NCBI RefSeq assembly: GCF_017348835.2
Contig: NZ_CP071375.1
DNA: 64,000 nt
Reading direction: 5' to 3' (one strand)
Origin: Escherichia coli
GTDB taxonomy: Bacteria; Pseudomonadota; Gammaproteobacteria; Enterobacterales; Enterobacteriaceae
Part shown: piece after piece, positions 51,501 through 57,500 of the stretch
How the letters are laid out: each line of letters starts with the position of its first letter
How positions within the stretch are numbered: the stretch's first letter is position 1
Program-made: the position numbers

Positions 51501-54500
51501 TTACGGTGTATTACCTCCGCTTTGTAAAGACCATTGATGCTCTCAGCCATCGCGTTGTCATACGAGTCGCCAGTACTCCCTGTTGATGCCAGTAATCCGG
51601 CTTCCTTAAGCCGCTGCGTGTAGGCCAGCGATACATACTGAGAACCTTTATCACTGTGATGGATTGTGCCGGACGGCCGACGGGCCCACAACGCCTGCTC
51701 CAGTGCATCCAGCACGAATGTTGTTTCCATGGATGATGAGACCTGCCATCCCACGATGTATCCGGCGAACACATCAATGATGAACGCCACATAAACGAAG
51801 CCCTGCCATGTGCTTACCCAGGTAAAATCAGCCACCCACAACTGGTCTGGACGTTCTGCCACGAACTGACGGTTTACGCGGTCGCATGCGGCAACGGCTT
51901 TCCGGCTGACGGTAGTGCGGACCTTTTTACCCCGGAGAACACCGGCAAGTCCCATAACTGCCATGAGACGTGCCACAGTGCATCTGGCCACTCTGATACC
52001 TTCCCGTAACAACTGACGCCAGACTTTACGCACACCGTATACCTGGTGATTTTCATCGTATACGCGCTGTATCTCTTTCTTCAGCCAGTCATCGTGCTGC
52101 GCACGGGCACTGCGTTTATCCGGATGATGTCGCTGTTGCTGACAATGGTAATACGTTGACGGGGCAATATGCAGTTCGCTGCATACCGGTCCGACCCCGT
52201 ACTGCTCACGCAGCTTATCCAGCAGTGGCATCATTTTTTCCAGAGGCGGTCGAACTCCGCCTTCGCAAAATAAGCGGAAGCCTGGCGAAGGATATCGTTA
52301 CTGCGGCGCAGTTCACGATTTTCACGTTCCAGCTCTTTCAGACGCTGACGTTCAGCGGTGGTGAGTCCACCATCACCACTCCCGGTATCCCGCTCATGCT
52401 GGCGAACCCAGACACGCAGAGTCTCCGGCGTACAGCCAATCTTTGGGGCAATGGAACAAATTGCCGCCCACTGTGAGTCATATTCATCCTGACTTTCCAG
52501 AACCATACGAATCGCCCGCTGACGGACTTCGGGGGAAAAACGAGTATTTTTAGTCATCCTGTTTACCTCTTTCTCAGGGAGTTTAGTCTCCAGGATTTCC
52601 GGGGCGGTTCACTTCGAAGTATTCTTCGTAAGCCTTTTCCATGATTGTGTCGAAATCCATATCACTCACCTGAGTTTCTTTCCAGCCAGCGACGGGCACC
52701 ATTTTCGGTTTTAAACGTTTTGCTTTTGGTATACGTCATCGCGGTGAATGTACCGTCCTGGTTGGGAAACACGCCGTACACCAGAGATTCGTTGTTGCCA
52801 AGATCGATAGTATCCATGTTGACCTCATTTCCCCTTAACGCCGGGTAGCGGAACAAAAACCTGCTGCATAGTTATTAAAGTTGAACCCTGCCGTCATGTT
52901 CATACGCCTCGGGCTGGCTACTTACCCCCTGACCACTGCTTGGTAACTCGAAGTATTGCCCGGCGTTCTGTGGGGCGGGGTGGGTGGTTGGTGTATGTAA
53001 TCTACAATTAAAAACTGTTTTGTGTCAACAGTTTTTAATTGTTGTTTTGGGCAAAAAAATCCCTCGAAAGAGGGAGTATGAAAATTGTTCAACTCAGATA
53101 GAGAAGGGAAATTGTCGCCGAGAATGTGTCACGCTTACAATCTCAATGCTTGAAGCAGCTACTCTGTACAGGATTATGTAGTTAGGGTGGGTCACGATCT
53201 CTCTCAATCCAGAAACCCGTTCGCTTGGTGGATATAAGTACGGATGCTCAGATAGAGGTAATACCGATGTTTCAATGCGTATTTTTAGTCTACGTGCTGC
53301 CGGTGGGTTCTCCTTGGCGATGTAAGTTATGATCTGGCGCAAATCATCGCGAGCAGACGGTAGCCATAAAATGGGTAACATTACTCGCTCTTGTTAGTTA
53401 CAGCAATTTGAGCAATAAGATTTTCCATTTCAGCCATTACCTCGTCATGTGGAATTGCGGGGCGAGTGTCTGCAAGGCTTGACGTTACTTTAGTGCGCAA
53501 CCATTCGTTGTAACTGTTTTCTTGTTCGGTAGTTTCGAATTCTGAAACTATCGGAGAAAGGGCTGTACCCATGGCATAACTCCTCTTCTTGTACTGTGGT
53601 CACGCCCGGCGGCTTTTTTGTGCCGCCAGCCACCTAGCAATGGTTTCTTCCATTGATTTTTTCTTGTCTTTGATTTCTTGAAGCATTTTTTCTTGGTCTT
53701 CCTCAGGAAACGCACTAAAAGCTTGGAGCAGTTCGCGTTGGCGAGGACCAATTTTCATCGTGTCAGGGGTGAAAATTGGCTCACACTCTTCAGGAGGCAA
53801 TAAAAACCAATGCAATGGATGCCCTGAAACCTCAACCAGTTTATCCAAACTTGAGGCTTTAGGTGTAGCCTTACCGCTGACCCATTGTTGAACAGTTTGT
53901 TGTGTCACACCAATTCTACGGGCAAGCTCAGCCTGGCTCCATCCAGTTTCCTGAAGAAGCTTGCTGATTCTGTACATAGATACTTCTAGGGCGCTCATCA
54001 TTATTCAATTTTACAGGTAAATACTGTTAAAAGCATCACAATAAAAAACTGTTGATTGCATACAGTTTTTTATTGTAGTCTTTGCTTATAGTTTTTAGAG
54101 GAGGGCAAAATGCTAGATAGCACTCGCGAAAAAATTAGGCAGAAATACACTCAGGCTGAAATAGGTCGTTATATGGGGGTCGCTCAACAGACTGTTTGGC
54201 AATGGTTTAGCTTTGGCGTTCCCCCAAAGCAGGTAATTCCGTTATGCCAACTAATGAAGTGGGAAGTTACCCCGCATGAAATCCGCCCAGATATTTATCC
54301 TAACCCAACCGACGGTTTACCTGTTGGATGTAAGGTTAACACATCAAATGCGCCGGAGTTGATTCATGAAAATCAAGCATGAACACATCCGCATGGCGAT
54401 GAATGCCTGGGCGCATCCGGACGGCGAAAAAGTACCGGCTGCGAAAATTACCAAAGCGTATTTCGAGCTGGGAATGACGTTCCCGGAACTGTATGACGAC

Positions 54501-57500
54501 AGCCATCCGGAAGCCATGGCTCGCAATACTCAGAAAATTTTCCGCTGGGTGGAGAAAGACACTCCTGATGCGGTTAAAAAAATTCAGGCGTTGTTACCAG
54601 CGATCGAAAAAGCGATGCCGCCTCCGCTGGTGGCCCGAATGCGCAGCCACAGTTCCGCTTATTTTCGGGAGTTGGTAGAGACGAAGGAACGGCTGGTGAA
54701 AGATATTGATGATTTCGTTGCATCAGCGATCGTTCTGTTCGATCAGATGAATCGTGGTGGCCCGGCAGGAAACACTCTGGCTGTGCATTAATTGGGTAAT
54801 AAATATGAGTAATGACAAAAAATTGACACTGAGCGTTTACGAAAACAGTCCGCACATCTGGCGTGGCGGTTTATCTGATGTGGAGCTGGCAGAGTGGTTG
54901 ATACATAAAGCTAATGCGCTGCTCTGGCGTTTGTCAGCCAGAGAACAGCGCAAGGAAACCAGAATAAAGCTGGCTGATGCAGAAGCGTGTGCCGGGCTTA
55001 TTGAGGATTATACAAATCTTGGTATTTCTTCAGCAGAGAGTGATCCCATTCAGCCTCTGAGCAGGGAGTCAATCCAGCACGCTGGTTGTATGGCACATCT
55101 TGTAACTGCTCGTCAACATGAGGTGGGTATTGGATCACTTCCGGTGGGATATTCGCTGATTCCAGAGCTGGTTGAAGCAAGAAAATCAGTTCAGAAAAAG
55201 AGAGATGACGCACTTCAATTATTGAGAGAGCACTATGGCGCGATACCAGAATGCGAACAGCATCGATACCCTGAAGGTTATGAATGGATGCAGTCTCTTT
55301 TTGAAGTTCGCTAATCAATATGTCGAGACGAAGGTATGTTTCGGCGCGCAGCCAGGCTCTGTAATCCGGGAGCATTTCGGGGCTGTTACACCAGCGGTTT
55401 GTTGCTGCAACATTTAATACATGAGCCTGATAAAGGCTTTTCAAAAAATACATGTCGAACCTCCTCTGGTTCTGTCGATTGGGAACCACAGATTATATCC
55501 GGAGGAAGGTTCGGCACCAGATGAGGTAGCCATGCGTGATTACGCAAAAGTTTCTCCGCGATTCTGGCTGGGAGAAACGGGGAGAGAACTTAGAAAGGCG
55601 GGTGCAGAAGCGCAAGTTGTTGCTTTTTACCTGATGACATCCCCTCACGCAAATATGCTGGGTTTGTATTACCTGCCAGTTTTATACCTTGCTCATGAAA
55701 CCGGGCTTGGTCTGGAAGGGGCTTCAAAGGGGCTTAAAAGGGCTGTTGAAGCTGGTTTTTGTAGCTATGACCATGATGCAGAGATGGTCTGGGTCCATGA
55801 AATGGCAGCCTGGCAGGTTGGGGAAACGTTGAAGCCTGGCGATAACCGTTGTGCAGGTGTCAGGAATGAGTATGCATCATTACCTGAAAACGCTTTTCTG
55901 TCAGTGTTTTACGACAGATATAAAACGGATTTCCATCTGGATGTGAGGCGGAATAATAGCCGAAATTCGGTAAGGGGCTTCGAAGGGGCTTTTAAGGGGC
56001 TTCGAAGCCAAGAACAGGAACAGGAGCAGGAGAAAGAACAGGACAAAAACACTATGGTTCATGGCAAAAAAAACACCACGAACCAGGCAGGGGATGTTCA
56101 GACCGTCAATCCTGGTCAGCCAGCAGGCACGACACCGGAAGCCGATTCAGCGTATGCGCTGAAAGCCGATTCGGGCGCTGTGCAGCAGGTGATGACCGCA
56201 GGGTCGGAGCAATCACACCAACTGCAGCAGCCTGAAGCCGATTCCGCCATTCAGCGGGAAGCCGATCGGGTAGTCCCGGAAAGCACCGGGCAGTCTGTGG
56301 GACGAGTGGATTATCCGGATGTGTTCGAACAGGTCTGGCGGGAATACCCGTTGCGTGCTGGGGCAAACCCGAAGAAATCCGCTTTCAGTGCCTGGAAGGC
56401 CAGATTGCGCGAGGGGGTGCCACCAGAGACCATGCTGGATGGTGTGAGGCGTTACGCGAGATACCTGGCGGCGACCGGGAAAGCGGGAACGGAATTTGTT
56501 CAGCGAGCGACGACGTTTTTTGGGCCGGACCGGAATTTTGAAAACCCCTGGTTGCTCCCGGTAAGCGGCACGAACAACCAGCGTTGTGTGAATCATATTT
56601 CTGAACCGGATACCGAAATTCCGCCGGGATTCAGGGGGTGATGTGGCATGAAAAACATTGCGGCAGCCGGGGTTCTTGAACGTATTCGCAGACTTGCACC
56701 ACAGGCGTCGGTTCCACCGTACCGGACGGTGGAGGAGTGGCGGGAATGGCAACTTGCTGAAGGACGAAAACGCAGCGAGGAGATTAACCGCCAGAATCAC
56801 CAGTTGCGGGTGGAAAAAATCCTGAATCGTTCGGGCATCCAGCCTCTGCACAGCAAATGCTCGTTTGCGAATTATCAGGTGCAGAACGACGGGCAAAAAT
56901 ACGCGCTGAGCCAGGCCAAATCCATAGCTGACGAACTGATGACCGGGTGCACGAATTTTGTGTTCAGCGGTAAAACCGGCACCGGGAAAAATCACCTTGC
57001 AGCGGCGATGGGTAACCGGCTGATGGCGAAGGGGCGCAGCGTGATTATCGTCACCGTGTCTGATGTCATGAGCGTGTTGCATGACAGCTACGACAACGGC
57101 AAATCCGGGGAAAAATTTTTACAGGAGCTTTGCAGTGTTGATTTGCTGGTCCTGGATGAAATAGGCGTTCAGCGGGAGACGAAAAACGAGCAGGTGGTAT
57201 TACACCAGATAATTGATCGCCGGACAGCATCACTGTGCAGTGTCGGGATGTTAACAAACCTGAATCATGCCGCAATGAGTACACTTCTTGGTGAGAGGAT
57301 TATGGACCGCATGACCATGAACGGTGGTCGATGAGTGACGTTTAACTGGGATAGCTGGCGTCCAAATGTCAGCAATATGAGGGTTGTGAAGTAATTTTGT
57401 CCGGAGGAAATTTTAATGGAAACCGTATCTGACGCACTGAAAGCACTGAAAAAAGCCTCTTCACATGTGGTGGCAGCTCGCCTTGGAATCAGTCGTGAAG

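Follow-up and report, generated by a model that had tools for sequence, protein, structure and literature searches.

A putative antiparallel overlapping gene pair downstream of ydaS and ydaT in a lambdoid prophage of Escherichia coli

In a stretch of 64,000 nucleotides (nt) from Escherichia coli (NCBI RefSeq assembly GCF_017348835.2, contig NZ_CP071375.1; called the window below, and all positions are those of the window), the interval between a ydaT-like gene and the next gene of a prophage early operon holds two long open reading frames (ORFs) on opposite strands, which raises the question of which of them is a gene. A preliminary description had listed the forward frame as an unrecognised gene of 169 amino acids (aa), standing after a YdaS/YdaT pair and ahead of the replication genes, and had added that the antisense frame may or may not be real. 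Comparison of diverged copies indicates that the two frames are not alternatives: the forward gene (fwd) and the antisense gene (anti) are two real genes, which form a conserved antiparallel overlapping pair. We further propose, with a probability of about 0.6, that positions 54805-55520 constitute a portable module of two convergent genes that share their last 105 codons and are reciprocally expressed. The features at issue are the following.

54805-55314, + strand: fwd, 169 aa, family phrog_8304; in line with the early operon, starting 13 nt past the ydaT stop codon.
54998-55453, - strand: anti, 151 aa, ECs1072 family (NF033230); RefSeq coding sequence WP_000273724.
54998-55314, both strands: dual-coding overlap of 317 nt, comprising 105 full codons of each gene and both stop codons.

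The better-supported gene of the two is anti. RefSeq places it alone in the interval and leaves the forward ORF unannotated there. Its product matches the NCBIfam model NF033230, named 'ECs1072 family phage-associated protein' (105.3 bits against a cutoff of 70, E = 2.7e-30, model positions 3-141 of 142), and carries the conserved motifs PDYRAWLRAE.YLRLD, LSF.E and EWDH. From only 11 sequences, AlphaFold predicted an all-helical structure with a predicted local distance difference test score (pLDDT) of 88.7 and a predicted template modelling score of 0.85, and this fold had no meaningful match in PDB or BFVD. The doubt expressed about the antisense ORF is thus resolved in favour of a real gene by the RefSeq entry, the NCBIfam match and the structure prediction, while the start that went with it has to be moved. 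The longest ORF (54998-55489) begins at a GTG at 55489, and the start is most likely the ATG at 55453, because the AGGAGG Shine-Dalgarno sequence of the latter is conserved in all lineages and RefSeq uses the same start. A regulated signal was reported for ECs1072 on a Sakai microarray (PMC2241611), and ECs1071-1073 are not mentioned in the supplements of one Sakai RIBOseq paper. Scanning genome contigs with the anti alignment gave no confirmed locus.

For fwd, the coordinates 54805-55314 were confirmed. Its product matches phrog_8304, a family with no assigned function, over the full length (positions 1-169 of 169, E = 3.9e-120), and the homologues from Salmonella and Klebsiella match the same family at 1e-25 to 1e-51. 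A profile search of 1.84 billion proteins yielded 22 clusters at 50% identity, in which the conserved motifs (SPHIW(R/A)GGL..ELA.WL..KANA, Y..LG.S...DPI.PLS.E.I and P.GY..L.(E/D)L) are kept along the sequence; three of the clusters are fragments of 68-99 aa, and the others measure 125-197 aa. A Shine-Dalgarno sequence precedes fwd in most lineages (AGGAGG in Salmonella). AlphaFold modelled a long N-terminal helix with confidence (pLDDT 72-78), and the C-terminal half scored low. No Pfam or NCBIfam match was found for fwd, and tblastn with the window and Klebsiella versions against 50,697 phage records returned no match. Searches of both families against Pfam, PADLOC and PDB sequences likewise gave no informative match (the NCBIfam match of anti to NF033230 aside), and neither protein has an obvious membrane segment.

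Evidence for protein-level selection on both frames comes from the pattern of substitution. In the overlap, codon positions 1, 2 and 3 of fwd lie opposite positions 1, 3 and 2 of anti; therefore a wobble change in one gene hits the second codon position of the other. Codon alignments were made from diverged copies in E. coli, Salmonella and metagenome assemblies. For the 64 codons that belong to fwd only, the Nei-Gojobori ratio of nonsynonymous to synonymous rates (dN/dS) was 0.04-0.28, with dS saturated in deep pairs, and for the 46 codons of anti that lie past the fwd stop codon it was 0.06-0.43, mostly 0.1-0.2. Two control genes compared with an 88%-identical copy showed 7/4/22 (ydaT) and 1/1/10 (replication gene) substitutions at the three codon positions. 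Inside the overlap, dS of fwd was 0.1-0.9, against saturation outside it, and the proportion of synonymous differences (pS) of anti was 0.39-0.59 in deep pairs. An OLGenie-style count over 11 moderately diverged pairs found zero sites synonymous in both frames; the rates were 0.110 for changes nonsynonymous in both (NN), 0.242 for changes silent in anti only (NS) and 0.185 for changes silent in fwd only (SN). The resulting ratios were 0.59 for fwd (dNN/dSN, bootstrap confidence interval 0.48-0.74) and 0.45 for anti (dNN/dNS, 0.37-0.56), with the reservation, which counts against our reading, that the bootstrapped pairs share branches and are not independent, so that these intervals are too narrow.

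A natural control is provided by the loci L045 and L046, in which anti is intact and fwd is absent. In pairs with L045, pS of anti was 0.75-0.88 in the region equivalent to the overlap, and the anti of L045 is not unusual in its N-terminal region. Because L045, which lacks fwd, diverges to saturation, it is the forward frame that constrains the silent sites of anti in the other lineages. We also ran a stop test in both directions on 20 lineages, in which one protein was kept fixed, its synonymous codons were shuffled and the partner frame was checked. The per-lineage P-value for the frame staying open across the overlap was 0.0005-0.37, and by this measure the co-occurrence of the two ORFs is far beyond chance. 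In phage SfIV, where the partner of the anti homologue is short, no long ORF is open opposite most of that homologue, so the open forward frame is not a by-product of anti composition. The most conserved overlap motifs of the two proteins are encoded by the same bases, GTGATCCCATTC (55040-55051), which reads S-D-P-I in fwd and, on the complement, E-W-D-H in anti. This dual-coding core contains a GATC Dam site. The pair therefore shows what is looked for in an antiparallel overlap, namely more than 90 nt shared, purifying selection in and outside the overlap, and a translation start signal of its own for each gene.

Both genes were found on opposite strands in all 20 remote viral loci obtained with the fwd profile, with an overlap of ~260-320 nt. 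The pair is likewise present on one more Salmonella contig, on L107 (the most distant contig) and on that of P0041, and across the 20 viral loci together with L106, L107 and the P0041 contig the overlap is 185-323 nt. Pairwise identity, computed for 22 lineages of anti and 20 of fwd, has a median of 36-37% and a minimum of 17-20%; according to the sources, the hosts are E. coli, Salmonella, Klebsiella, Enterobacter ludwigii and Yokenella. The WP_ accessions in Klebsiella belong to the forward gene, RefSeq keeps anti in E. coli, and the two are annotated together in none of the E. coli loci examined. Because Klebsiella records fwd and E. coli records anti, annotation pipelines evidently choose between the two strands.

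The direction of fwd is always that of the repressor-controlled early operon, and anti always runs opposite to it. In E. coli, fwd comes after cro and ydaT and is followed by a replication initiator and a DnaC-like loader. In Klebsiella it stands directly after cro and before a YmfL-like gene, and in one Salmonella prophage type it lies inside the Cox-side operon with Ash and ExoVIII. At L043 it directly follows a 21-nt inverted copy of the repressor-cro intergenic sequence (an OL/PL-like site), and there it is likely the first PL gene. The pair thus occurs in prophages where replication genes are not adjacent (the Klebsiella and Salmonella contexts). These positions bear on whether fwd might serve the O/P-type module behind it as a replication accessory protein, a supposition prompted by the fact that, in the window as in other lambdoid loci of E. 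coli, fwd stands immediately upstream of the initiator and the DnaC-like loader. We regard this as extremely unlikely, since fwd has no similarity to any replication protein family and its neighbours in Klebsiella, in Salmonella and at L043 are those just given; the 169-aa ORF matched no replication accessory protein in searches of Pfam, NCBIfam, phrog, PADLOC and PDB sequences. In L045 (4771-5187, - strand) and L046, which represent one Salmonella lineage, a 138-aa gene of phrog_37051 faces anti across a 300-nt gap. That this gene is a diverged fwd was not supported (hhalign probability 3.5%), the two sharing only an 'ELAAWL' stretch.

Three candidate signals for the leftward transcript were located.

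55454-55465, - strand: initiation region of anti, with AGGAGG (55465-55460), TTCGAC and the ATG; spacing 6 nt, or 7 nt for the GGAGG core.
55492-55520, - strand: putative sigma-70 promoter of anti, with a -10 hexamer TATAAT (55497-55492) and the box TGGTGCCGAAC (55519-55509) over a weak -35.
54841-54872, - strand: terminator-like hairpin and U-run for leftward transcripts, within the fwd codons N-S-P-H-I-W-R-G-G-L.

The string GAAGGAGGTTCGAC-ATG is almost invariant in 16 aligned lineages. About 70 nt upstream of anti are kept in nearly all lineages despite a differing neighbour gene, and in nearly all of them the box is accompanied by a -10-like hexamer 16-18 nt downstream, which is a perfect TATAAT in the window. 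These upstream elements would represent a sigma-70 promoter with a weak -35, followed by a strong ribosome-binding site. A strict sigma-70 consensus scan of 53900-55800 found no promoter, and missed the published PR as well; it is neutral on the anti promoter. On the - strand the hairpin reads CAGCCCGC-N12-GCGGGCUG, then UUUUU or UCUUU, ~125-155 nt past the anti stop codon. Most lineages give it an energy of -15 to -20 kcal/mol, and it resembles a terminator that may serve the anti transcript. In the anti leader (55454-55520, - strand), CGAACCUUCC is complementary to the Shine-Dalgarno region GGAGGUUCG ~45-60 nt downstream. The long helix between CCUUCCUCC (the anti-Shine-Dalgarno) and the Shine-Dalgarno sequence of anti was 86% paired over 16 lineages, against 32-57% when slid, with 0 compensatory changes, and RNAalifold of the leader retained just a mini-hairpin of 5 base pairs (bp). 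This pairing could be a hairpin that sequesters the Shine-Dalgarno sequence within a longer leftward RNA, the same hairpin in the rightward early transcript immediately ahead of the following gene, or a consequence of promoter and ribosome-binding-site conservation.

In phage lambda, oop is a 77-nt non-coding RNA over the 3' end of cII. The leftward unit of the window is similar to it in running antisense to the rightward early transcript from a start that lies between the replication gene and the cII analogue; it differs in coding for a folded protein of 151 aa and in overlapping a separate gene, not ydaT. An antisense RNA of the oop type was rejected as an explanation of the leftward unit, which encodes a conserved, well-folded protein and whose ORF ends 206 nt short of ydaT.

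With these signals, the proposed module might work as follows. In the lysogen, with PR off, anti would be transcribed from its own weak sigma-70 promoter and fwd would be silent, and the anti transcript would end at the hairpin within the 5' part of fwd. On derepression, strong early transcription would yield fwd and would silence anti, through polymerase collision and through a duplex of more than 300 bp with the anti mRNA. The overlap would couple the choice of protein to the lysis-lysogeny state and would keep recombination from parting the two genes. The most likely kind of role is a prophage-expressed accessory function for anti, and for fwd that of a lytic-phase partner or antagonist. 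A more specific form of this proposal is tentative: the pair may be an obligately overlapping two-protein accessory of the switch, with an anti of new fold made in the prophage and an early-lytic fwd, one for each state of the switch and inseparable by recombination.

Besides the narrow bootstrap intervals mentioned above, several observations weigh against the module as proposed. In the window, the Shine-Dalgarno sequence of fwd is weak (tGGGT), the -35 of the candidate anti promoter is poor and the hairpin reaches only -8.2 kcal/mol. The AlphaFold model of fwd is poor overall (pLDDT 57). The fwd frame is disrupted by frameshifts in L003, L040 and L043/44 (in L003 by a 1-nt deletion at 54836, which is present in at least three genomes) and is absent in L045/46, which indicates that it is dispensable. 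Decay also touches anti: L049 carries a nonsense codon together with a 21-nt deletion, and 2 of 15 close E. coli haplotypes have nonsense alleles. Finally, the fwd-only part of 31 near-identical E. coli copies shows 5 nonsynonymous changes and 1 synonymous change, and selection on fwd may be relaxed in this cryptic prophage clade. The anti-only part of the near-identical copies has 4 synonymous changes, 0 missense and 1 nonsense. These small counts agree with drift of a lytic-phase gene in a cryptic prophage, the lysogen-expressed gene being mostly kept.

Four facts from this record would suit a simpler explanation, in which anti alone is real and the forward ORF of 169 aa is a shadow ORF without function, picked up now and then by gene callers: the annotation of just anti by RefSeq in E. 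coli, the poor fwd model, the frameshifted or missing fwd of several lineages, and the excess of nonsynonymous polymorphism in the fwd-only part of the close E. coli clade. A shadow, however, would hardly account for the low dN/dS at saturated dS in the 64 fwd-only codons, for 22 clusters that keep their motifs along the length, for a frame open in more than 20 lineages against the odds of the shuffle test, for Shine-Dalgarno sequences in most lineages, or for synonymous sites of anti that are constrained only where fwd is present. We consider this explanation very improbable, and retain the reading of two real genes.

Possible relatives of the pair were found in SfIV-like phages. There, phrog_5286 (SfIV gp36) is a remote full-length homologue of anti (hhalign E = 7e-5; Klebsiella anti against phrog_5286, 1e-14), and phrog_1744 (68-73 aa) resembles the N-terminal domain of fwd (hhalign E = 2e-4, hmmscan 0.005-0.02). 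The SfIV-like pair is also convergent and adjoins the repressor, and both of its genes are annotated in phages Kati and vB_EcoS-569R4. The overlap there is only 29 nt and the fwd-like gene has ~70 codons, whereas the window family has ~105 more fwd codons lying over anti. A short ancestral gene was probably lengthened across the 3' half of anti, which gave fwd its C-terminal 105 residues. Such an extension is suggested by the 29-nt overlap of the short homologue, and the poor structure prediction of the C-terminal half fits it; because the SfIV-like homology is weak (E ~1e-4), the extension is put forward as a hypothesis.

The short relative also invites the view that fwd is real just as an N-terminal domain of ~65-70 aa, followed by a tolerated, functionless tail of 105 codons. 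Such a tail might be expected to show the low pLDDT, the variable C-terminal length (proteins of 125-197 aa) and the lower conservation of the overlap relative to the N-terminal part that fwd does show, and a homologue of 68-73 aa overlapping by only 29 nt demonstrates that a short form exists. Moreover, with the SDPI motif opposite EWDH, anti could itself impose part of the conservation of the extension. Yet wherever the extension occurs it is open, its dNN/dSN of 0.59 is below 1, it suppresses synonymous divergence in anti, and its motifs are at least 90% conserved (Y69, L72, G73, S75, D80, P81, I82, P113 and L122) at a median identity of ~36%. A functionless tail is accordingly judged unlikely, and a full-length fwd is preferred.

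As for function, a precedent comes from Pseudomonas phage Fc02, in which olg1, expressed in the lysogen, is antisense to the second gene of the early-lytic operon and both confer superinfection exclusion (PMC9936078). Fc02 olg1/olg2 with gene 10 and the window pair are alike in that protein-coding genes from the two strands of the lysis-lysogeny region of a temperate phage overlap one another. They are unrelated in sequence, Fc02 is a Mu-like Pseudomonas phage, and its olg1 is co-transcribed with the repressor. The Fc02 report demonstrated exclusion activity and was not built on deep conservation or on selection on two frames. By analogy with this case and with sieB-esc of P22 and lambda, anti could be a superinfection-exclusion or defence protein and fwd its early partner or antagonist. 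In favour of this, the module sits in the immunity and early region, where anti runs against the early operon in every context; fwd and anti are strictly co-inherited, and fwd is lost or disrupted with anti intact in four diverged lineages against one reverse case, although anti nonsense alleles do occur in E. coli copies that are nearly identical. Neither protein, however, has a match in PADLOC, Pfam, PDB or BFVD, and the lack of an obvious membrane segment in either also speaks against such a role, so that we hold this assignment to be doubtful and keep to the broader proposal of a prophage-expressed anti and a lytic-phase fwd. A type II toxin-antitoxin pair was rejected for fwd and anti, as the genes are convergent rather than co-directional and gave no toxin or antitoxin signal in Pfam, PADLOC or PDB.

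The part of the operon that precedes the module consists of the following features.

54110-54382, + strand: YdaS-like helix-turn-helix (HTH) protein, Cro analogue, first gene of the rightward early operon; PF15943, phrog_35.
54366-54791, + strand: YdaT-like protein, CII analogue; PF06254, phrog_163 (4e-46).
54359-54376, at the ydaS/ydaT junction: YdaT operator TTGATTCATGAAAATCAA, a perfect PRE-type site with zero mismatches to TTGATTN6AATCAA.

Both proteins belong to the Pfam families of YdaS and YdaT. The YdaS-like protein matched PF15943 at 8e-10 (38.8 bits, cutoff 30) and phrog_35 at 9e-29, and the YdaT-like protein matched PF06254 at 38.9 bits (cutoff 21). With these matches and the 17-nt overlap of the two genes, it holds that a Cro/YdaS-like gene and an overlapping YdaT-like gene open the rightward operon. 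The YdaT-like protein is ~85-90% identical, by the printed alignment, to the solved structures PDB 3C4R and 8BT1 (E ~1e-83). In CP-933P, PaaR2, YdaS and YdaT behave like CI, Cro and CII (PMC8630535, PMC9986795), a YdaT-activated PRE lies between ydaS and ydaT (PMC8630535), and the operator consensus of YdaT is TTGATTN6AATCAA (PMC9986795). The suggestion that YdaS and YdaT form a toxin-antitoxin system has to be dropped, since published tests for this prophage type found no toxicity of YdaT and concluded that the pair is not such a system (PMC8630535, PMC9986795). The window resembles CP-933P and Rac in having the same YdaS and YdaT families, a YdaT of ~85-90% identity, the perfect operator, and a PaaR/PaaA/ParE-like operon to the left. 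On the published CP-933P map, ydaS and ydaT are the sole genes between the repressor gene (paaR2) and o (PMC8630535), whereas the window carries an extra two-gene module between ydaT and the replication gene. The YdaS/YdaT part is therefore known biology, and the new result concerns 54805-55489. A second YdaT-like site, TTGAAGTTCGCTAATCAA (55301-55318), lies over the fwd stop codon with 2 mismatches; the window contains 8 such matches against 4.7 expected, which is not significant.

The region as a whole belongs to a defective lambdoid prophage of E. coli, in which it covers immunity and early replication; its identity is 100% to strain PE164 and 99.7% to many genomes of O157:H7, O103 and O45. 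The genes on either side of the switch are listed below.

53094-53381, - strand: ParE/RelE toxin.
53381-53572, - strand: PaaA-like antitoxin, 63 aa.
53600-54001, - strand: PaaR/DicA-like HTH repressor, with the divergent promoter region and then the ydaS-like gene next to it.
55532-56641, + strand: replication initiator or DnaD-like loader, 369 aa, the next early-operon gene; phrog_1701, RefSeq start, GAGGT Shine-Dalgarno sequence.
56648-57334, + strand: DnaC-like loader, with DUF1627 and DUF977 genes beyond.

Immediately left of the switch, the first three genes form a PaaR/PaaA/ParE-type operon (53094-54001, - strand) like the published paaR2-paaA2-parE2. It may be a paralogous paaR1 set, the C-terminus of its antitoxin seeming different from that of paaA2. 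For the replication gene, a start at 55421 had been given; the longest ORF from there encodes 406 aa, and the phrog_1701 match begins only at residue 38. The start was therefore corrected to 55532, on which the beginning of this match, the RefSeq start and the GAGGT Shine-Dalgarno sequence agree. A start at 55421 would overlap the start region of anti. An IS3-family insertion sequence (IS) element with a programmed frameshift lies at 51344-52557 (- strand) beside a truncated ydfB and a DUF1391 (ydfA-like) gene, IS elements are also present at L001 12488-13701 and 14015-15082, and more IS3 and IS481 copies are found downstream of the replication module, the prophage being defective. An AT-rich gene for an alpha/beta hydrolase (58967-59740, - strand), which comes after the DUF977 gene but is encoded on the other strand, looks like a cargo (moron) gene between IS elements.

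No description of the fwd/anti pair was found in a literature search. Among cases already published in E. coli, the antisense genes laoB, ano, asa, pop and oloz of enterohaemorrhagic strains (PMC5810103, PMC5960689, PMC6294744, PMC7103648, PMC9927249) are comparable: they too form non-trivial antiparallel coding overlaps, found in O157:H7 and left out by annotation pipelines. Most of these genes are young and of limited taxonomic range; they lie inside a 'mother' gene and are supported mainly by expression, and the three oloz genes are stated to lie outside phage regions. The window pair, by contrast, is old, spans genera and overlaps 3' to 3', and its evidence is evolutionary only.

Long antisense coding overlaps in bacteria and phages are disputed, most cases being young, lineage-restricted and expression-based, and annotation pipelines forbid them by design. 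The fwd/anti pair stands out with a median identity of ~36% over at least five enterobacterial genera and with selection on both frames, and it comes with natural controls, namely a lineage free of the partner and a sister group with a 29-nt overlap. It therefore offers a clean model for the evolution of dual coding and for the constraint that this places on both proteins. It also exposes a systematic annotation gap, in which RefSeq shows anti in E. coli and the forward gene in Klebsiella. The module lies, moreover, in an immunity region of a type that has been well studied in prophages of O157:H7. If the tentative reading of the pair as an accessory of the switch were true, the C-terminal half of fwd would be a datable protein birth by antisense overprinting, with the state before the extension preserved in SfIV-like phages, and the pair would be a plausible case of a prophage exclusion or defence function together with the phage's own antagonist of it.

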